Below, in pieces: positions 2,032-19,688 of a DNA stretch of 20,232 bases. The stretch's first letter is position 1. Each line of letters starts with the position of its first letter. The stretch is from IMG/VR virus record IMGVR_UViG_2728369554_000020, one strand, 5' to 3'. The notes beneath the pieces were generated by a model that worked only from the letters and a program-made list of their open reading frames with translations, did not search any database and was not told the DNA's origin. The DNA is from a virus. Its lineage: Duplodnaviria; Heunggongvirae; Uroviricota; Caudoviricetes. Made by a program: the position numbers and the translations under genes.

Positions 2032-2107
2032 TGGAGAGCGGTGGCGGGAATCGAACCCGCATCATCAGCCTGGAAAGCTGAGGTAATAGCCATTATACGA
2101 TACCCGC
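2032..2107 (-). tRNA. tRNA-Gly(UCC)-like element, probably degenerate at the 3' acceptor strand
   Basis: Hand fold of the minus strand: acceptor 5' GCGGGTA, 3-bp D stem, anticodon stem TCAGC/GCTGA with loop TTTCCAG (anticodon UCC), T arm GCGGG-TTCGATT-CCCGC; the following CACCGCTCTCCA does not pair canonically with the 5' acceptor strand. The 5' ~65 nt closely match my recollection of E. coli glyT. Confidence 0.5.
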
Positions 2108-7494: not shown

Positions 7495-7680
7495 TTACTC
7501 CTCAGATTCGTAAGCTGTGAAGACAGCGACCTCCGTCTGGCCGGTTCGGATTCGTACCTCGCAGAGGTCTTTCCTCGTTACCAGNNNNNNNNNNNNNNNN
7601 NNNNNNNNNNNNNNNNNNNNNNNNNNNNNNNNNNNNNNNNNNNNNNNNNNNGCGATTAACATCGCCTTTTGCTGCTTCAT
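7495..7680 (-). CDS. hok: Hok/Gef-family type I toxin, interrupted by a run of N
   Basis: N-terminal MKQQKAMLI and C-terminal LVTRKDLCEVRIRTGQTEVAVFTAYESEE flank the N run and match the Hok family as I recall it; ATG at 7680 with AAGGAG upstream. Confidence 0.6.
   Translation of the reverse strand: MKQQKAMLIXXXXXXXXXXXXXXXXXXXXXXXLVTRKDLCEVRIRTGQTEVAVFTAYESEE
7575..7651. other. run of 77 N (masked or unresolved sequence) inside the hok-like gene
   Basis: Literal n characters at 7575-7651. Confidence 1.
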
Positions 7681-8018
7681 AGCCTGCTTCTCCTTGCCTT
7701 TCGGCACGTAAGAGGCTAACCTACGTTTGTGTAGCATAGATTGGGCCTCAGATTAATGTTAAGCGTCTTGCCGGACGCGTAATGTTAACTGGGGCTTTTC
7801 TCTGTCTGCCTTACAGTGGCATGCCCGAGGCAGACAGCCTCAAGCACCCGCAACAATCTTACCGACACCGATAAGAAAACGCTATTTTTTATTGCCAGAA
7901 CCTTCTGCCCAGGCTAATGTATCCGCGTCAGAACGGCGCAATGCGCTCGCCTGAGATACGTTTACTTGTCATTGGTGGCAACAGATAACGGCAATTGTTG
8001 TTTCTGTTTGTTTCCTTC

Positions 8019-8134: not shown

Positions 8135-9001
8135 TCATCGTAAAACATCCTCCACACCAACCAGTCCGTTCTGCTTCAGATATTCCATCGCCTTATCAGG
8201 TAGATTGCTTGATTTATTGACGCTTTTTAACGAACTGGCTAATCGCTTAACCAACATTGTTAATTCGTTAACCTGTTTTCCGGATGCTTGTGGATTGTCA
8301 GTTTTACCAGAAGTGGCGGTACAGTCGGCGTTCCCACTCTTCTCCTCCTGCGACGGTTTTGCTGCAATCTGACTGGCATGTTTGTTAATGGTAACGATCA
8401 GCTCTTGCTCAGCCTCATCAAGACAATCACTGATACCTCGCCTGTCACCGTCAAAATCATCGAAATCGGCGCGAACCTTGGCAAACTTCAGGATTGCAGA
8501 CAACACCTCACCAGGAATTACCGGAGAGTTGGTTGACGTTTCCGAGATTTTCCGAAAATTATTGGTTGACGAATCCTTGTTTTCCCGAAAGCTTCCTGAC
8601 TGAAGCATGGCTTCGCGGCAATCGTTCCATCCTTCAGCATAATCACTATACGCAAGAGGCCAACCTCTTATGTATTCACGCGGCAACTTATCAGGCACTA
8701 CCAGCGCTGGCGATGCTGCATAAAGTGGTGTTATTTCTGCCCGAAAGTCACCTACTTTATGCAGTCGCACCCACCGTTTGGCTTCTGCTTTGTCAGAATA
8801 CATAGCGGTGAACGTATTATATTCATGGTCAATTTGCGTGAAGGTTGCCTTCCACGCCACCGGCTCAGCTTCCAGCGATGCCAGTGCAATTTTGAATAAC
8901 TCACCCTCTATCCGTGCCATCCCTGAATTGGGGTGACATTTCGTAATCGCTATTTTTAATTTGGCCTCTTCGATTAATTGTTCTTTGGTTAATTCAGCCA
9001 T
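8135..9001 (-). CDS. hypothetical protein (288 aa), uncharacterised
   Basis: Long ORF with ATG at 9001 and an in-frame stop just upstream; own upstream region of 131 bp with two hairpins; followed by the bidirectional terminator. No catalytic motif recognised. Confidence 0.6.
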   Translation of the reverse strand: MAELTKEQLIEEAKLKIAITKCHPNSGMARIEGELFKIALASLEAEPVAWKATFTQIDHEYNTFTAMYSDKAEAKRWVRLHKVGDFRAEITPLYAASPALVVPDKLPREYIRGWPLAYSDYAEGWNDCREAMLQSGSFRENKDSSTNNFRKISETSTNSPVIPGEVLSAILKFAKVRADFDDFDGDRRGISDCLDEAEQELIVTINKHASQIAAKPSQEEKSGNADCTATSGKTDNPQASGKQVNELTMLVKRLASSLKSVNKSSNLPDKAMEYLKQNGLVGVEDVLR

Positions 9002-12939: not shown

Positions 12940-13365
12940 TTAATGCACAGCCAGAGTGTTTCCTGCCGGGCCACCACGATTCATCTGGTTGAAACCAGCA
13001 ATCGCCACTGCGACAAAATCATCAGCGTCTCTCACCAGTCGTTCCCGCGTCTCCACCAGTTCCCGAAACCAGGCTGAACTGTGGCTGCGCATTCGGGCCA
13101 CCAGCAGAGGTGGCATTGCTTTTTCGATCGCTGGTAACAACGCCTGAATTTTTTCAACAGCATCAGGGGTGTCTTTCTCTACCCAGCGGAAAATTTTCTG
13201 GGTATTACGAGCCAGGGCTTCCGGATGGCTGTCGTCATACAGTTCAGGGAACGTCATACCCAATTCGAAATACGCTTTGGTAATTTTCGCAGCCGGTACT
13301 TTTTCGCCGTCCGGATGCGCCCAGGCATTCATCGCCATGCGGATGTGTTCATGCCTGATTTTCAT
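12940..13365 (-). CDS. YdaT-like protein (141 aa) in the cII-equivalent position
   Basis: ATG at 13365 with GGAG 8 nt upstream; N-terminal MKIRHEHI resembles my recollection of Rac YdaT; overlaps the Cro-like gene end. Confidence 0.6.
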   Translation of the reverse strand: MKIRHEHIRMAMNAWAHPDGEKVPAAKITKAYFELGMTFPELYDDSHPEALARNTQKIFRWVEKDTPDAVEKIQALLPAIEKAMPPLLVARMRSHSSAWFRELVETRERLVRDADDFVAVAIAGFNQMNRGGPAGNTLAVH

Positions 13366-13624
13366 GAATCAACTCCGGTTCATCTTGTGTGTTAGCCTTA
13401 CATCCAACAGATAAACCGTCGGTTGGATCCGGGTATAAATCCGGCCGTAATTCATGAGGAGTCACCCCAGTTGCAAGGTAAATTTGACGGACCCGTTCCC
13501 CTGTCGGCACCCGTCCATTGTATTCATTTGCCCATTTGTGTATTTGAGACGGCCAGGCCCCTATCGCGCGCCCTAGTGGGCGAATACCACCGGCAATCTT
13601 TATTGCTTTGTCCAAAGCAGTCAT
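13349..13624 (-). CDS. Cro-like HTH regulator (YdaS/DicC-like)
   Basis: ATG at 13624 with GGAGG 5 nt upstream; 91 aa; divergent from the repressor gene. Confidence 0.65.
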   Translation of the reverse strand: MTALDKAIKIAGGIRPLGRAIGAWPSQIHKWANEYNGRVPTGERVRQIYLATGVTPHELRPDLYPDPTDGLSVGCKANTQDEPELIHENQA

Positions 13625-13727: not shown

Positions 13728-14117
13728 ATGGATATGAGAAAAAAGCAATACGACACCCCGCTGGCGGAGAGATTAGATGCGATCTCGCAACAGCATCATT
13801 TAAGCGGTTCAGATTTAGCGCGCATCGCTGGAGTGGGCCGTTCGTCAGTTAATGCCTGGAAAAAGAGAGGGACAATCAGCAAAGATTCCGCGGCCAAAAT
13901 AGCGGAAGCCACAAATGTTTCCCTTTCCTGGCTACTGACGGGAAAGGAGGATACGAGCAGGGAAGTGCTTGATGATGATGAGAAAGCCCTGCTTGACGTT
14001 TACAGAAACCTACCTCCTGTAGAACGCAGAAATATGCTTGCAGCTTTTCAAATGCGACTTCAAAAATTGACTGAATTTTACTCGGAATACGTTGATCCGA
14101 TAACACGTCAAAAATAA
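13728..14117 (+). CDS. prophage repressor (DicA/cI-like, XRE-family HTH)
   Basis: 129 aa; N-terminal HTH (SGSDLARIAGVGRSSVNAWKKRG); no SD; TATAAT at 13716-13721 only 6 nt before the ATG. Confidence 0.8.
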   Translation: MDMRKKQYDTPLAERLDAISQQHHLSGSDLARIAGVGRSSVNAWKKRGTISKDSAAKIAEATNVSLSWLLTGKEDTSREVLDDDEKALLDVYRNLPPVERRNMLAAFQMRLQKLTEFYSEYVDPITRQK

Positions 14118-14137: not shown

Positions 14138-14163
14138 TACCGCCGGAAGGCGGTTTTTTTTTA
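14138..14163 (+). terminator. intrinsic terminator after the repressor gene
   Basis: Hairpin ACCGCCGGAAGGCGGT followed by a run of 9 T. Confidence 0.6.
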
Positions 14164-14182: not shown

Positions 14183-14211
14183 TTGACATATGTTCATCTA
14201 AATAGAACAAT
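14183..14211 (+). promoter_or_regulatory. candidate promoter for the ydfA-dicB-like operon, overlapped by a second TGTTC-N9-GAACA site
   Basis: TTGACA at 14183-14188, 17-nt spacer, AACAAT at 14206-14211; palindrome TGTTC (14191-14195) ... GAACA (14205-14209) lies within the spacer and -10. Confidence 0.4.
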
Positions 14212-14285: not shown

Positions 14286-14438
14286 ATGGATACTATCGAT
14301 CTTGGCAACAACGAATCTCTGGTATACGGCGTGTTTCCCAACCAGGACGGCACATTCACCGCGATGACGTATACCAAAAGCAAAACATTTAAAACCGAAG
14401 CTGGCGCGCGTCGCTGGTTAGCCAGAAGCACTGACTGA
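14286..14438 (+). CDS. ydfA: small protein (50 aa), YdfA-like
   Basis: ATG at 14286 with GAGGT upstream; translation MDTIDLGNNESLVYGVFPNQDGTFTAMTYTKSK... resembles my recollection of Qin YdfA. Below the 60-aa cutoff of the ORF track. Confidence 0.55.
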   Translation: MDTIDLGNNESLVYGVFPNQDGTFTAMTYTKSKTFKTEAGARRWLARSTD

Positions 14439-14449
14439 TGAGGTTGACG

Positions 14450-14608
14450 ATGGAATTTAAAGATTTACCTCCAGACACTCAGAAAATCGCCGCAGAAACA
14501 CTGAAATCTCTCATTTTGGACGGGGGGACAGAAAAGGTAGAGCCAGCTAAAAAACTGGCTCAAGAAATCAGAGAAGCCTTTATTGCTCTTTATCAGTCTT
14601 CTCCATAG
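14450..14608 (+). CDS. small protein (52 aa), YdfB-like position
   Basis: ATG at 14450 with GAGGT 5 nt upstream; 12 nt after the upstream stop. Confidence 0.45.
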   Translation: MEFKDLPPDTQKIAAETLKSLILDGGTEKVEPAKKLAQEIREAFIALYQSSP

Positions 14609-14765
14609 CGGCTTGTTTTTCTTCTTTCAATATATTGCGAATTGTAATAACTGAATTGGCCGCCTCTGAAGGGGATGACATTTTGCCAGCCCGAATTAAC
14701 TCAACTGTTAAGTTCAAAGCTGCAACAGATGGATAGGTAAATGGGTTAATTAACTTGTCTGACAT
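14580..14765 (-). CDS. small hydrophilic protein (61 aa) encoded antisense to the kil operon
   Basis: ATG at 14765 preceded by GGAGGA with 5-nt spacer; G-rich codon first positions; convergent with and overlapping the last 29 nt of the YdfB-like gene. Confidence 0.35.
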   Translation of the reverse strand: MSDKLINPFTYPSVAALNLTVELIRAGKMSSPSEAANSVITIRNILKEEKQAAMEKTDKEQ

Positions 14766-15094
14766 TTTATCCTCCATTGAGGTTACTGGTTGAGAATGGA
14801 GACCACACGTGACAGCGTGTTGTCGTGCGCCGGACACGGATAAGAATCCGGCACTGACAGTTTACTGAAAGGATATATCCCTGAAAAGTCAGGGCATAAC
14901 GCGAAAGCGCACGGCGAAATTGGTCTCTCTGTACGGTGTCTTTAAATTTAATTCGACCGTGCGCTTCCGGTTGTGGCACTCCGCGAAATGGCGCGGCGGT
15001 AAGTATGGCGGGGTTATTCCTTACCCCCATTGGTAGCACCGGGTTGTCAGGTTGACCATACGCCTGAGTGACAACCCCGCTACAACACTCCATG

Positions 15095-15150
15095 TTGATT
15101 TGTACCTTTGGCGGCATCAGTTTCATTGCTGGCTGATGTCCGCCCTTTTT
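15095..15150 (+). ncRNA. dicF: DicF-like sRNA candidate (5' end uncertain)
   Basis: CTTTGGCGGCATCAGTTTCATTGCTGGCTGATGTCCGCCCTTTTT: stem GGCGGCATCAG/CTGATGTCCGCC plus T-run; the core resembles my recollection of K-12 DicF; sits directly upstream of the dicB-like gene as in Qin. Confidence 0.5.
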
Positions 15151-15326
15151 AAAGTGAATTTTGTGATGCGGTGAATGCGGCTAAGCGCACGCGGAACAGT
15201 TAAAAGCGTATTAAAGCATCTGTGTTATGGGTGGATTCTCTGTATCCGGCGTTAATTGTTAACTGGTTAACGTCACCTGGAGGCACCAGGCACCGCATCA
15301 CAAAATTCATTGTTGAGGACGCGATA

Positions 15327-15515
15327 ATGGAAACATTATTACCAAACGTTAATACGTCTGAAGGTTGTTTTGAAATTGGTGTCAGTATCAGTAACCCTGC
15401 ATTTACTGAAGATGCCATTAATAAGAGAAAACACGAACGGGAGTTATTAAATCAAATATGCATTGTTTCAATGCTGGCCCGTTTACGTCTGATGCAAAAA
15501 GGATACTGGCAATGA
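15327..15515 (+). CDS. dicB: cell division inhibitor DicB
   Basis: 62 aa; METLLPNVNTSEGCFEIGVSISNPAFTEDAINKRK... matches my recollection of DicB; GAGGA 8 nt upstream of ATG at 15327. Confidence 0.8.
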   Translation: METLLPNVNTSEGCFEIGVSISNPAFTEDAINKRKHERELLNQICIVSMLARLRLMQKGYWQ

Positions 15516-15715
15516 ATACAGCATTCGCACTCGTTCTGACAGTTTTTCTTAATACAGGCGAACCACTTGACCTTATTGTTGATATACGTGACTCAATGGA
15601 AGAATGCATGGCTGCCGCAGATGAACAGAAAATTCCCGGTAACTGTTATCCGGTCGATAAAGTTATTCACCAGGATAATAACGAAATCCCGGCAGGACTT
15701 AAAACAGCGCCGTAA
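15512..15715 (+). CDS. ydfD: YdfD-like small lysis protein
   Basis: ATG at 15512 overlaps the dicB stop (ATGA); hydrophobic N-terminus MNTAFALVLTVFL followed by CYPVDKVIHQDN, resembling Qin YdfD as I recall it. Confidence 0.7.
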   Translation: MNTAFALVLTVFLNTGEPLDLIVDIRDSMEECMAAADEQKIPGNCYPVDKVIHQDNNEIPAGLKTAP

Positions 15716-15792: not shown

Positions 15793-18270
15793 ATGAGCAC
15801 TGATAAAGAAGAATTTGCATTATATTGTGAAGCAAAAAATGACAAAGTCAGAAAACGCCTTGGAATTAAAGGTGGTTTTTACTGGACTACAGCAAAAAAA
15901 TTATCTGTTGCCATCTCCCGCTGCATTACCGCAATGGATGACAACGATTATGATGAAGACGACTTTAAAAAACCCGTCCGCGTCCATTTACCCGTTGTGA
16001 ATGACCTTCCTCCGGAAGGCGTGTTTGATACCGAATTCTGCAACCGATACGAAAAAGGCGGGGAAGATGGTATCACAATGGTACTTATCGCGCCCTCGCC
16101 CTCTGTTCAGGATAAACCAGCCAGCACTGACAATACCAACGTCAACGGCGAAGACATGGCTGAGATTGAGGAGAACATGCTCCTGCCGGTTTCAGGTCAG
16201 GAACTGCCCATTCGCTGGCTTGCTCAACACGGCAGCGAAAAACCAGTAACGCACGTTTCGCGGGGCGAACTGCGCGCATTACATAACGCACAGGATGAAA
16301 AACTTCCCGCCGTTACCGCGCTGGCCATCTCAAATAAAGCAGCGCAACTCGAACCGCTGGAGATTCGCGATCTCCACAAACTGGTGCGAGACACTGACAA
16401 AGTTTTCCCCGCCCCCGTAAATTCGGACCTGGGACTGATAACCTCTTTTATCGAAGCATACCTGGACGCCGACTACACCGATCGCGGTCTGCTGACAAAA
16501 GAGTGGATGAAAGGAAATCGTGTTTCGCGTATCACCCGCACGGCTTCCGGTGCTAATGCCGGTGGCGGGAACAAAACCGATCGCAATCCGAATTTAGTAC
16601 ACACCTTCGATACGCTGGATGTGGAGATTGCAGCAGCCACACTTCCGATGGATTTTAATATTTATGAAATTCCGGGCAGCGTTTATCGTCGCGCAAAAGA
16701 AATCGTCCTGAAAAGAGAAAGTCCGTTCAAAGAATGGTCCGCAGCACTTCGCGCAACCCCGGGTATTCTGGATTATTCCCGCGCCGCGAATTTTGCACTT
16801 ATCCGGAGCGCTCACCCTGAACTTTATCTCTACCCGGGACGCCTTCAGGAGTATATCAACGCCCACTTAACGGAGACTGATCACGAGAACCCCAGCAAAG
16901 AAACTCTCGCTGCTGCACGACATACACCGGAAAAAGATATCCTGGAAGAAGTTAACCGCGAACTGGCTGCTGAACGCGAAACAGAAGAAGAAAAAAATAA
17001 TGAGGAAAAATCACAACCGTCTGACGCAATGGCAGATGAACAGGCAACGACTGAAGCAATGGGACAGGATACAACTGAACATCGCCAGGACACACAATCG
17101 CTGGATACTCAGGCACAGATAAATCCGGTTAATCAGGTAAAAGTTACCGCTGGCGAAGTAAACAAAATTATGCAGGCAGCCAATATCAACCAGCCTGATG
17201 CCGACAAAATACTGGCAGTCCATCGCGGTGAGTTCGTTGACGGAATTAGCGACCCGAATGATCCGAAATGGGTTAAGGGGATTGAAACCCGCGATTCTGT
17301 GAACCAGAACCAGCCCGAATCGGAACAAAACGACCAGAAAGCGGAACAAAACAGCCCAAATGCGTTACAAAACAGCCCAAATGCGTTACAAAACGAGCCA
17401 GAAACGAAACAGCCTGAACCAGAAGAGCAACAAGAACCGGAAAAAGTCTGCACCACCTGCGGTCAGACCGGCGGCGGCAACTGTCCTGACTGTGGCGCGG
17501 TGATGGGCGACGCAACATACCAGGAAACATTCGATGACGAGAATCAGGTTGAAGTTCGGGAAGACGATTCGGAGGAAATGGAAGGCGCTGAACATCCACA
17601 CAAGGAGAATGCTGGCAGCGCTCAGGACCACGCCAGCGATAGTGAAACTGGCGAGACGGCAAATCCCTTAATTGCGGTGAACGGTCATCACGTTATCACA
17701 TCCACCAGCAGAGTATGGAATCACCTGTCGGTCGACCTTGAAACCATGGGAAAAAATCCCGATGCCCCGATTATCTCAATAGGTGCAATATTTTTCGATC
17801 CGCAAACCGGAGATATGGGGCCGGAATTTAGTAAGACCATCGATATAGATACTGCTGGCGGAGTCATTGATCGTGACACCATTAAGTGGTGGCTTAAGCA
17901 ATCACGTGAGGCGCAATCTGCCATTCTGACCGACGAAATCCCGTTAGATGATGCACTGCTGCAATTGCGGGAATTTATAGATGAAAACTCCGGTGGATTT
18001 TTTGTTCAGGTCTGGGGAAATGGAGCCAGCTTCGACAACGTGATTTTACGCCGTTCATACGTACGACAGGAGATCCCCTGCCCGTGGCGCTACCACAACG
18101 ATCGCGATGTACGCACAATCGTTGAGCTGGGGAAAGCCATAGACTTCGATGCCAGAACGGCTATTCCATTCGAAGGTGAGCGCCATAATGCACTTGATGA
18201 CGCCCGTTACCAGGCAAAATACGTTTCAGCTATCTGGCAAAAACTGATCCCGAATCAGGCTGATTTTTAA
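15793..18270 (+). CDS. large exodeoxyribonuclease VIII-like protein with C-terminal DEDDh 3'-5' exonuclease domain
   Basis: 825 aa; GAGGT upstream of ATG at 15793; C-terminal motifs DLETMG, WGNGASFDNV and HNALDDARYQAKY; central acidic low-complexity linker with a CxxC...CxxC zinc-ribbon-like motif (CTTCGQTGGGNCPDCG). Confidence 0.8.
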   Translation: MSTDKEEFALYCEAKNDKVRKRLGIKGGFYWTTAKKLSVAISRCITAMDDNDYDEDDFKKPVRVHLPVVNDLPPEGVFDTEFCNRYEKGGEDGITMVLIAPSPSVQDKPASTDNTNVNGEDMAEIEENMLLPVSGQELPIRWLAQHGSEKPVTHVSRGELRALHNAQDEKLPAVTALAISNKAAQLEPLEIRDLHKLVRDTDKVFPAPVNSDLGLITSFIEAYLDADYTDRGLLTKEWMKGNRVSRITRTASGANAGGGNKTDRNPNLVHTFDTLDVEIAAATLPMDFNIYEIPGSVYRRAKEIVLKRESPFKEWSAALRATPGILDYSRAANFALIRSAHPELYLYPGRLQEYINAHLTETDHENPSKETLAAARHTPEKDILEEVNRELAAERETEEEKNNEEKSQPSDAMADEQATTEAMGQDTTEHRQDTQSLDTQAQINPVNQVKVTAGEVNKIMQAANINQPDADKILAVHRGEFVDGISDPNDPKWVKGIETRDSVNQNQPESEQNDQKAEQNSPNALQNSPNALQNEPETKQPEPEEQQEPEKVCTTCGQTGGGNCPDCGAVMGDATYQETFDDENQVEVREDDSEEMEGAEHPHKENAGSAQDHASDSETGETANPLIAVNGHHVITSTSRVWNHLSVDLETMGKNPDAPIISIGAIFFDPQTGDMGPEFSKTIDIDTAGGVIDRDTIKWWLKQSREAQSAILTDEIPLDDALLQLREFIDENSGGFFVQVWGNGASFDNVILRRSYVRQEIPCPWRYHNDRDVRTIVELGKAIDFDARTAIPFEGERHNALDDARYQAKYVSAIWQKLIPNQADF
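17351..17392 (+). repeat. perfect tandem duplication of a 21-bp unit (ACAGCCCAAATGCGTTACAAA x2)
   Basis: Copies at 17351-17371 and 17372-17392, in frame (QNSPNAL repeated) within the large exonuclease gene. Confidence 0.9.
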
Positions 18271-18331: not shown

Positions 18332-18601
18332 ATGAGCGAACAGTACCTGATAACGCTCGACGAGTGGAAACCCAAACGGTTCAGTCTCCCAATAACAAAC
18401 ACTACCCTGGTGAAATACGGAAAACTAGGATACATCGTTCCAAGACCACAAAAAATTCGTGGGCGTTGGCTGATAGATCGCCGGGCAGTATTTGTTGGAC
18501 CTGGTGAAACGGGAATTGCGCCGGAAATTCATACTGGCGATGATGATGCACTGAAGGAGATTTTAACTCATGTCACCGAGGCCACGAAAAAACAGCACTG
18601 A
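18332..18601 (+). CDS. xis: excisionase (lambda Xis-like)
   Basis: ATG at 18332 with GGAG 8 nt upstream; YLITLDEW...VPRPQKIRGRWLIDRRAVFV resembles lambda Xis; overlaps the integrase start by 32 nt. Confidence 0.65.
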   Translation: MSEQYLITLDEWKPKRFSLPITNTTLVKYGKLGYIVPRPQKIRGRWLIDRRAVFVGPGETGIAPEIHTGDDDALKEILTHVTEATKKQH

Positions 18602-19688
18602 CGTAGCCGGACTTTACGAAAAATTTGATCGCAGAACTGGCAGAGTTTACTACCAGTATAAAAACCCTGTGACTGGAAAATTTCACGGGCTCGGAACAGA
18701 CAAAGGTAAGGCAGAAAAAATCGCTTCCACAGCCAATCAGCGAATAGCTGCAGCAGAGGCTGAATATTTCATGCGCAAAATTGATGAAAGTCCGTCAGCA
18801 ACAAAGCGTCGGGGTATCAGATTAAAGGCATGGGTTGATCGATATCTGAAAATACAGGACACGCGACTGAAAAATGGAGATATTGCAGCTACAACTCACA
18901 AAGAAAAAGCCCGAATGGCTGCATACCTGGTTTCCCGTCTGGGAAACCACCCATTGAAAGAACTGGAAGTAAGAGACTTTGCATTAATACTGGATGAGTG
19001 GCTGGATAAAGACATGGTCAGCACAGCGAGAGTAAATCGTGGATTATGGGTTGATATTTATAAAGAAGCACAGCATGCAGGGGAAGTTCCTCCTGGATGG
19101 AATCCTCCGGAGGCTACCCGTAAACCGATCCCTAAAGTAACCAGAGCCAGGCTCACCCTGGAAGACTGGCAAAAAATTTACAACGCAACGCCTGAAAAAC
19201 ACTTTATCCGTAACGCAATGCTTCTTGCGATTGTTACTGGTCAGCGCCGTGATGACATTTGCCACATGCGTTTTTCAGATGTGTGGAACGAACACTTGCA
19301 TATCACCCAGGGAAAAACCGGAATGCGTCTGGCGTTACCGCTTACACTACGCTGTGATGCCATTGGGATAACGTTAAAAGAAGTTATTGATGGGTGCCGA
19401 GACAGAATATTAAGTCCATATCTAATCCATAGTCGGCACCAGAAACAACCAAAGCCGATGAGTAAAGACAACCTGAGCGACTACTTTGCCAAAGCACGGG
19501 ATCTGGCTGGGATAACTCCACCAGCAGGAAAAACTCCGCCAACATTTCATGAACAACGCTCCCTGTCAGAACGACTGTACCGCGCGCAGGGTATTGATAC
19601 AAAAACATTACTGGGACATAAAGTCCAGGCAACCACCGATCGTTATAACGATACTCGTGGTCAGGAATGGGTTAAATTGGTTGTTTGA
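18570..19688 (+). CDS. int: tyrosine integrase (lambda Int family)
   Basis: 372 aa; AAGGAGA upstream; C-terminal catalytic region TGQRRDDICHMRFSDV ... HEQRSLSERLY ... LLGHKVQATTDRYND colinear with lambda Int. Confidence 0.9.
   Translation: MSPRPRKNSTDVAGLYEKFDRRTGRVYYQYKNPVTGKFHGLGTDKGKAEKIASTANQRIAAAEAEYFMRKIDESPSATKRRGIRLKAWVDRYLKIQDTRLKNGDIAATTHKEKARMAAYLVSRLGNHPLKELEVRDFALILDEWLDKDMVSTARVNRGLWVDIYKEAQHAGEVPPGWNPPEATRKPIPKVTRARLTLEDWQKIYNATPEKHFIRNAMLLAIVTGQRRDDICHMRFSDVWNEHLHITQGKTGMRLALPLTLRCDAIGITLKEVIDGCRDRILSPYLIHSRHQKQPKPMSKDNLSDYFAKARDLAGITPPAGKTPPTFHEQRSLSERLYRAQGIDTKTLLGHKVQATTDRYNDTRGQEWVKLVV

Follow-up and report, generated by a model that had tools for sequence, protein, structure and literature searches.

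The window (the whole stretch of DNA analysed, 20,232 nucleotides of the Caudoviricetes record IMGVR_UViG_2728369554_000020 in IMG/VR) is 100% identical to a prophage of E. coli R1 and KS-NP019, two strains from cattle. The element studied here has its home at the dicF position in the dicB operon of this lambdoid prophage. The genes around it follow the order CI/DicA-like repressor, ydfA-like gene, small ORF, dicF, dicB, ydfD-like gene, recE-like gene, xis, and int, which matches the dicB operon of the Qin prophage in E. coli K-12, where dicF (b1574) is annotated. The repressor gene (13728-14117, + strand) encodes a DicA/CI-like HTH protein (Pfam Phage_CI_repr/HTH_3; RefSeq annotation of the identical R1 locus). 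Judged by sequence, it and the divergent YdaS/Cro-like gene (13349-13624, - strand; Pfam YdaS_toxin) make up the immunity region that precedes the dicB operon, in a layout like that of K-12 dicC-dicA. The repressor gene has its terminator at 14139-14154. Between this terminator and the ydfA-like gene, a consensus scan picks out a promoter-like site (TTGACA-17-AACAAT, 14183-14211, + strand), a candidate dicB-operon promoter whose position matches the K-12 dicB-operon promoter region. The ydfA-like gene (DUF1391; 14286-14438, + strand; Pfam 99.7 bits and annotation) is the first of the operon and is followed by the small ORF (14450-14608, + strand). dicB (15327-15515, + strand; Pfam DicB, 130 bits, and annotation) encodes a cell-division inhibitor of 62 aa. 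Downstream are the ydfD-like gene (DUF1482; 15512-15715, + strand; Pfam and annotation) and, by annotation, the recE-like exonuclease gene (15793-18270), xis (18332-18601), and int (18570-19688). As in K-12, dicF lies between ydfABC-type genes and dicB, downstream of dicA/dicC-type genes. In RefSeq, no RNA gene is annotated at the dicF locus.

In place of K-12 ydfC there is a small opposite-strand gene (14580-14765, - strand; 61 aa, WP_001305873.1), which has a strong GGAGG ribosome-binding site and no Pfam match. It overlaps the end of the + strand ORF at 14450-14608 and would run convergent to the dicB operon. Another antisense reading frame (14767-15126, - strand, 119 aa), which begins within the DicF loop and extends across the conserved leader, was rejected as spurious because an 8-nt indel would shift its frame in K-12; it is unannotated, and the region is non-coding in K-12.

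The RNA of 14955-15330 folds (z = -4.2) into upstream stem-loops, a largely unpaired linker, a terminator hairpin, and a 21-bp long-range stem. The leader (14957-15083, + strand) is a conserved structured non-coding region with several stem-loops, among them a 9-bp stem (15041-15049/15069-15077), and is 90% identical to K-12 Qin. The linker (15084-15109, + strand) is mostly unpaired in the minimum free energy (MFE) structure of 14955-15330; the MFE structure has a weak 4-bp helix (15084-15087/15093-15096) there that the centroid lacks. The linker consists of the conserved ACUCCAUGUUGA, a variable 5' seed UUUGU (15099-15103), and a constant ACCUUU (15104-15109). The positions first given for the element are correct: CATGTTGATTTGTACC is located at 15091-15106 and TTTGGCGGCATCAG...CTGATGTCCGCCCTTTTT spans 15107-15150.

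The earlier note on this DNA, made by reading the sequence, described the 3' half as a terminator hairpin, and folding bears this out. The hairpin (15110-15144) has a stem of 15110-15122 with 15131-15144 and an 8-nt loop (15123-15130). Its stem is built from a GGCGG/CCGCC clamp and an 8-bp inner stem, CAUCAGUU/GGCUGAUG, with one bulged U; a C and then UUUUU (15146-15150) follow. Of 200 dinucleotide shuffles, not one matches its folding energy of -21 kcal/mol (z = -3.8). A terminator scan picks up the same element (15110-15150, + strand); the 3' end is a Rho-independent terminator with GC clamp and U-tail, as in DicF. The hairpin is more stable than that of K-12 dicF (-21 vs -15.9 kcal/mol).

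The spacer between dicF and dicB (15153-15311, + strand) is also conserved, being 92% identical to K-12, and a perfect long-range stem of 21 bp (15153-15173 with 15291-15311) closes it. Going by this predicted fold, the spacer probably serves as a substrate of RNase III and as the leader of dicB. In K-12, DicF is released on the 3' side by termination or RNase III and on the 5' side by RNase E, and a 72-nt DicF species has its 3' end about 19 nt beyond that of the 53-nt form (PMC9438474). By analogy, the 3' end of a 72-nt species would fall within the 5' arm of the 21-bp stem here. The spacer also matches the Rfam family STnc100 (RF02076) at 15157-15304 (model positions 21-154 of 206), at 38.2 bits, short of the gathering score of 47. 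Comparable sub-threshold matches are found at this position of the spacer in 13 related loci, and the STnc100 family and the dicF-dicB spacer may be one and the same element.

The element was compared with DicF by covariance model and by direct alignment. The Rfam DicF model (RF00039) has a gathering score of 48 bits. In a permissive scan of 601 nt (14800-15400), the full model matches 15097-15145 on the + strand with 38.7 bits (E = 6.6e-7 for the 601-nt scan). The covariance-model search proposed in the earlier note therefore gives a significant match in a local scan, though one below the curated cut-off, and for this reason the allele is missed by a standard scan: run on the window with default settings, the Rfam scan returns sok and a tRNA-like match only, and no DicF. 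Direct alignment to K-12 Qin gives 90% identity in the upstream and 92% in the downstream non-coding flanks, 76% in the hairpin, and 46% with an 8-nt deletion in the linker/seed (15083-15109). From synteny, the 90-92% identical flanks, and the significant covariance-model match, it follows that the element is the dicF of this prophage, strongly diverged; on these sequence grounds homology to DicF is near certain.

K-12 DicF and the window allele share the GGCGG...CCGCC clamp, the UUUUU tail, the 5' stem arm GGCGG-YAUCAG-UUU, a single-stranded A/U-rich 5' arm, and the downstream 21-bp stem. They differ in the 5' seed, which is UUUGUACCUUU in the window and UUUCUGGUGACGUUU in K-12, the former being 8 nt shorter; GGUGACGUUU of the K-12 5' arm is absent from the window allele. 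The loop and 3' arm are replaced as well, with loss of CUCCG (an anti-Shine-Dalgarno motif) and of ACUGCUCUGCC. The alignment thus agrees with the earlier note that the 5' portion diverges from K-12. The likeness of the 3' half to DicF, also put forward there, holds for the 5' stem arm and the GC clamp but not for the loop and the 3' arm. The idea of a variant seed is right in that the element is a DicF homologue with a different target-recognition sequence; since the loop and 3' arm are also altered, the change exceeds that of a seed alone.

RNase E cleaves by the rule RN↓WUU, where the arrow marks the cut. The K-12 5' end (AU↓UUUC) and GA↓UUUGU in the window both fit this rule, and on this basis a cut is predicted between 15098 and 15099 (GA↓UUU). 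The predicted mature DicF-variant sRNA, UUUGUACCUUUGGCGGCAUCAGUUUCAUUGCUGGCUGAUGUCCGCCCUUUUU, would then extend from 15099 to 15150 (+ strand, about 52 nt), its extent resting on the Rfam match, the K-12 alignment, and these putative ends. The linker with GA↓UUU and the downstream 21-bp stem would offer a context compatible with RNase E processing at the 5' side and RNase III processing at the 3' side. Of the features that suggest an Hfq-type sRNA, the sequence shows only generic ones: a terminator ending in a U-tail and, 5' of the hairpin, a stretch rich in U.

Four targets of K-12 DicF were used as a reference. In K-12 DicF, the 5' end pairs with xylR and the 3' region with the ribosome-binding site of ftsZ, and pykA is contacted through the same central region as ftsZ, the DicF23 mutation affecting both (Balasubramanian et al. 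2016, PMC5069750). manX is contacted by the DicF 3' end, within the manX coding region (Azam & Vanderpool, PMC5861419). The 5' portion is therefore not the ftsZ-pairing region that the earlier note took it for: it pairs with xylR, and ftsZ, pykA, and manX pair with the central/3' part (PMC5069750, PMC5861419).

The best duplex at each validated site was compared with shuffles of the target segment, and the fraction of shuffles pairing as well was recorded. At the xylR site, K-12 DicF reaches -20.3 kcal/mol (0/300 shuffles), and the window allele -11.7 (fraction 0.12), so that the 5' complementarity of DicF to xylR is missing from the window allele. The same is found for the complementarity of the central/3' part: at the ftsZ ribosome-binding site (-32 to +3) the energies are -27.9 kcal/mol for K-12 DicF (0.017 of shuffles) and -18.9 for the window allele (0.50), at the manX coding-region site -35.1 (0/300) and -20.6 (0.45), and at the pykA ribosome-binding site -22.3 (0/500) and -10.1 (0.76). 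In silico, pairing of the window allele is at chance level at all four validated sites.

Duplexes of sub-windows were also ranked by an accessibility-corrected score over 46 translation-initiation regions, namely those of the four targets and of 42 genes of a 50-kb K-12 segment. The score is a home-made approximation of IntaRNA that ranks K-12 DicF's own target ftsZ only 6th of 46; it places xylR 1st and pykA 2nd for K-12 DicF. For the window allele, xylR is 32nd, pykA 27th, manX 7th, and ftsZ 6th with only -4.8 kcal/mol. No convincing target for the window allele is found in the 46-region panel; the best are leuO (-9.4) and murD (-7.9), both with unremarkable scores at SD-like AAGGUAC sites. 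The accessibility-corrected score replaced whole-molecule RNAduplex and suboptimal-duplex scoring, which gave long duplexes riddled with loops and did not recover xylR for K-12.

The locus was next compared across prophages in two samples of IMG/VR prophage contigs, one collected by exact conserved flanks and the other, independent, by DicB protein similarity only. Among 61 distinct dicB-upstream sequences, the majority-base fraction is 0.86-1.0 at 15037-15086 and 15147-15206 and 0.56-0.79 at 15087-15136. In the leader (14957-15083) it is mostly 0.8-0.96, falling to 0.69 at a variable island (15027-15036). Variation is concentrated in 15087-15140, with near-invariant flanks on either side, and the linker is the most variable stretch of the region. 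Besides the dicF stretch itself, two small variable islands exist in the non-coding flanks (15017-15036 and 15207-15226; majority fraction 0.55-0.81), the second of which includes a 7-nt insertion relative to K-12. No complementarity of these two islands to the dicF seed is seen.

The dicF cassette combines a constant GGCGG/CCGCC terminator clamp with at least 10 5' seeds and at least four hairpin bodies, in mosaic combinations. Type I, that of K-12, has the seed UUUCUGGUGACGUUU and the hairpin body GGCGGUAUCAG…CUGCUCUGCCGCC. Type II, that of the window, has GA↓UUUGUACCUUU and GGCGGCAUCAG-UUUCAUUGCUGG-CUGAUGUCCGCC (hairpin II), and type III has GA↓UUACCUUUU and GGCGGGUAUC…GAUACCCGCC. Type IV carries a K-12-like seed (CUUUUCUGGUGAUUC) on a short hairpin. 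Types III and IV and the mosaics have flanks, clamp, and U-tail as in the window allele; hairpin II recurs identical or near-identical beneath other seeds, and each allele differs in seed and/or hairpin body. Hairpin II is found with at least eight seeds, each after a conserved …CAUGUUGA: UUUGU (window), UUGGU, UU, UUAGC, GUAUUG, GGCUUGUGUGAG, and forms with CAAUGGCAGUGGU and with GUGUUAACGACGGAG. Nearly all of these seeds have ACCUUU next. The seed GAUUGGUACCUUU of another allele is one base off that of the window. Conversely, the K-12 seed stands on a hairpin II-like body in L013, L108, and L132, the last from E. albertii.

Loci whose DicB is 100% identical to that of the window carry three dicF alleles (L138/L140, L136/L141, and L137), namely type II, a type III seed on hairpin II, and a short type IV. 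Three dicF alleles beside an identical DicB imply recombination within a few hundred bases, and the putative breakpoints between modules may be GUUGA↓ and UUUGGCGG. L136-L141 imply recombination between dicF and dicB themselves, over a distance of less than 250 nt. The recurrence of the identical allele, the concentrated variation, the combination of hairpin II with at least eight seeds, and the three alleles beside an identical DicB disfavour a one-off decay product.

Every allele forms a stable GC-clamped terminator hairpin, and the GGCGG/CCGCC clamp is invariant in all 16 allele types. Across the 16 alleles, 91% of stem cells are paired, against 29-70% in slid controls. A manual structure count over these alleles gives one compensatory pair (C-G to U-A), which amounts to weak covariation support, and RNAalifold, since the inner stems differ from allele to allele, retained nothing beyond the invariant 5-bp clamp. 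The argument for a conserved structure rests mainly on each allele folding on its own.

The 5426 complete E. coli genomes searched include 3947 with canonical (type I) DicF, 153 with type III alleles, and 84 with hairpin-II alleles. The exact window allele occurs in about 9 of 20,395 records, mostly from cattle, and in several IMG/VR prophage contigs (17 loci, some of them repeats of one contig); it is absent from 50,697 deposited phage genomes. The RF00039 score, 76.7 bits for type I and 38.7 for the window type, is 34-45 for mosaics, and types III and IV are undetected by this model at E <= 0.05. No description of seed-variant DicF alleles was found in the literature searched, and an earlier description is possible.

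Taken together, the element is best read as a divergent type II allele of dicF, carried by a lambdoid prophage of ruminant-associated E. coli, that specifies a detargeted or retargeted trans-acting sRNA with new targets, and we give this reading a probability of about 0.6. By analogy with K-12, the operon transcript would start downstream of the DicA-like repressor gene and would either terminate at the hairpin (15110-15150) or be cut in the downstream 21-bp stem. Trimming in the single-stranded linker, probably at GA↓UUU, would then yield the Hfq-type sRNA of about 52 nt. The scaffold, that is, the GC-clamped terminator, the U-tail, and ACCUUU, is kept and the recognition sequences are changed. 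As these recognition sequences are replaced, repression of xylR, ftsZ, pykA, and manX through the validated K-12 sites is not expected. The sRNA would instead pair with other mRNAs, most likely through an anti-Shine-Dalgarno-like 5' seed.

A broader form of this reading, which we put forward tentatively and at somewhat less than even odds, is that the dicF locus as a whole is a modular hypervariable seed cassette and that the window allele has been retargeted away from ftsZ, xylR, pykA, and manX. Recombination would shuffle interchangeable seeds and hairpin bodies, while the processing site (…AUGUUGA↓) is conserved and the scaffold, made up of ACCUUU, the GC-clamped terminator, and near-invariant flanks, stays constant. 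With interchangeable seeds on one chassis, different prophages would aim the same sRNA at different host or competitor-phage mRNAs. If this is true, most such alleles are invisible to Rfam-based annotation.

Among the other explanations, the one that survives best, though it is unlikely, is that the element acts in cis only, as an intrinsic terminator or attenuator limiting read-through into dicB, its 5' sequence being an unconstrained spacer and any trans function being gone. The clamp and U-tail are indeed the sole invariant parts across alleles, with seed and loop varying freely, and the 46-region panel yields no standout target. If the element is only a terminator, the finding is ordinary. 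Such a spacer would be expected to drift; the dicF stretch, however, is swapped in discrete modules next to non-coding sequence that is 90-100% conserved, and the variable seed is framed by conserved sequence, which extends up to GUUGA on one side and includes the ACCUUU box on the other. In K-12, moreover, Hfq-dependent action in trans is proven for the homologous sRNA (PMC5069750).

It is more doubtful still that the window allele remains an ftsZ inhibitor through another contact, in which a longer RNA with its 5' end near 15085 would pair CUCC and GAUUUGU with the Shine-Dalgarno sequence GGAG of ftsZ and with ACAAAUC immediately upstream of it. Such a duplex, ftsZ -23 to -7 with ACUCC...GAUUUGUACC, has a hybrid energy of -14.7 and a total of -10.7 kcal/mol, similar to the -9.3 of K-12 DicF with ftsZ in the same scoring, and CUCCAUGUUGA is conserved in many hairpin-II alleles. 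The contact nevertheless ranks only 7th of the 46 regions, with a shuffle fraction of 0.66 at the ftsZ site, no better than shuffled targets, and it needs a 5-nt bulge and an RNA that begins upstream of the predicted cut. In type III alleles, CCC stands in place of CUCC, and GAUUUGU is absent. Least probable of all is a decaying, non-functional dicF remnant in a degenerating prophage: rarity, absence from deposited phage genomes, and a score below the Rfam cut-off would fit it, but the K-12 hairpin is the less stable of the two, independent strains and contigs carry the allele with 100% conservation, the prophage around it has intact int, xis, recE, dicB, and immunity genes, and the differences are clean module replacements common to other alleles with no scattered mutations.

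Returning to a trans-acting sRNA with changed targets, DicF is the textbook example of a prophage sRNA blocking cell division. To our knowledge, everything known of DicF comes from the type I sequence of K-12 and EHEC, with ftsZ, xylR, pykA, and manX as targets, plus pchA in EHEC. If alleles of this kind (hairpin II and type III) are expressed, what is called "DicF" would be, in a few percent of E. coli genomes, a different regulator with a different regulon. Near-invariant flanks with a swapped 5' seed would exemplify natural sRNA retargeting by module exchange, and the alleles would be ready-made seed-swap variants for testing how prophage sRNAs gain host targets.

Multiple prophage-borne dicF copies are reported in EHEC O157:H7 (Melson & Kendall 2019, as cited in PMC7873438 and PMC9438474). 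Like the window allele, these copies lie in lambdoid prophages of ruminant-associated E. coli. Two of the O157 copies were examined, one from EDL933 and one from strain 9234. Both belong to type I and depart from it by single-base changes (GACG to GACA; GUGA to GUGG); they retain the K-12 seed and loop, whereas the window allele does not. Another system comparable in concept is the C4 antisense RNA of P1/P7 (RF01695), which is also an immunity-region RNA with a constant scaffold and with recognition that differs between related phages. The specificity of C4 shifts with a few bases, and it has no similarity in sequence or structure to the dicF variant. C4 acts on sites in its own transcript. 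A C4-like cis system was considered for the dicF variant and rejected: the search of the 20-kb window for a complementary, co-varying site returned only the element's own antisense strand and unremarkable GC-rich matches. In one IMG/VR contig (L161, 1400-1875), isrK (65.4 bits) and a C4 antisense RNA (77.6 bits) come within 300-400 nt after a canonical dicF (76.7 bits), so that the dicF region is linked there to an immunity RNA module of the P1/P7 type.

Several minor observations concern the contigs and the rest of the window. The contig L131 (JAGZPX010000007.1) is labelled as a Veillonella parvula MAG and carries an E. coli-type dicF/dicB locus with a DicB 85% identical; the Veillonella label is most likely due to a binning contaminant. 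An Rfam tRNA call at 2037-2107 (- strand, 41.4 bits) has several non-canonical acceptor-stem pairs, and ARAGORN finds no tRNA across the window; the call may correspond to a degenerate phage tRNA gene. In strain R1, an ISEc8 element (IS66 family, about 2.4 kb) is inserted at a position corresponding to about 8616-8625 of the window. The window is without the insertion and so derives from a close relative of R1 and not from that strain. The sok antitoxin RNA (RF01794, 116 bits; 7675-7849, - strand) adjoins the hokD toxin gene, and the two form a type I toxin-antitoxin module within the prophage.
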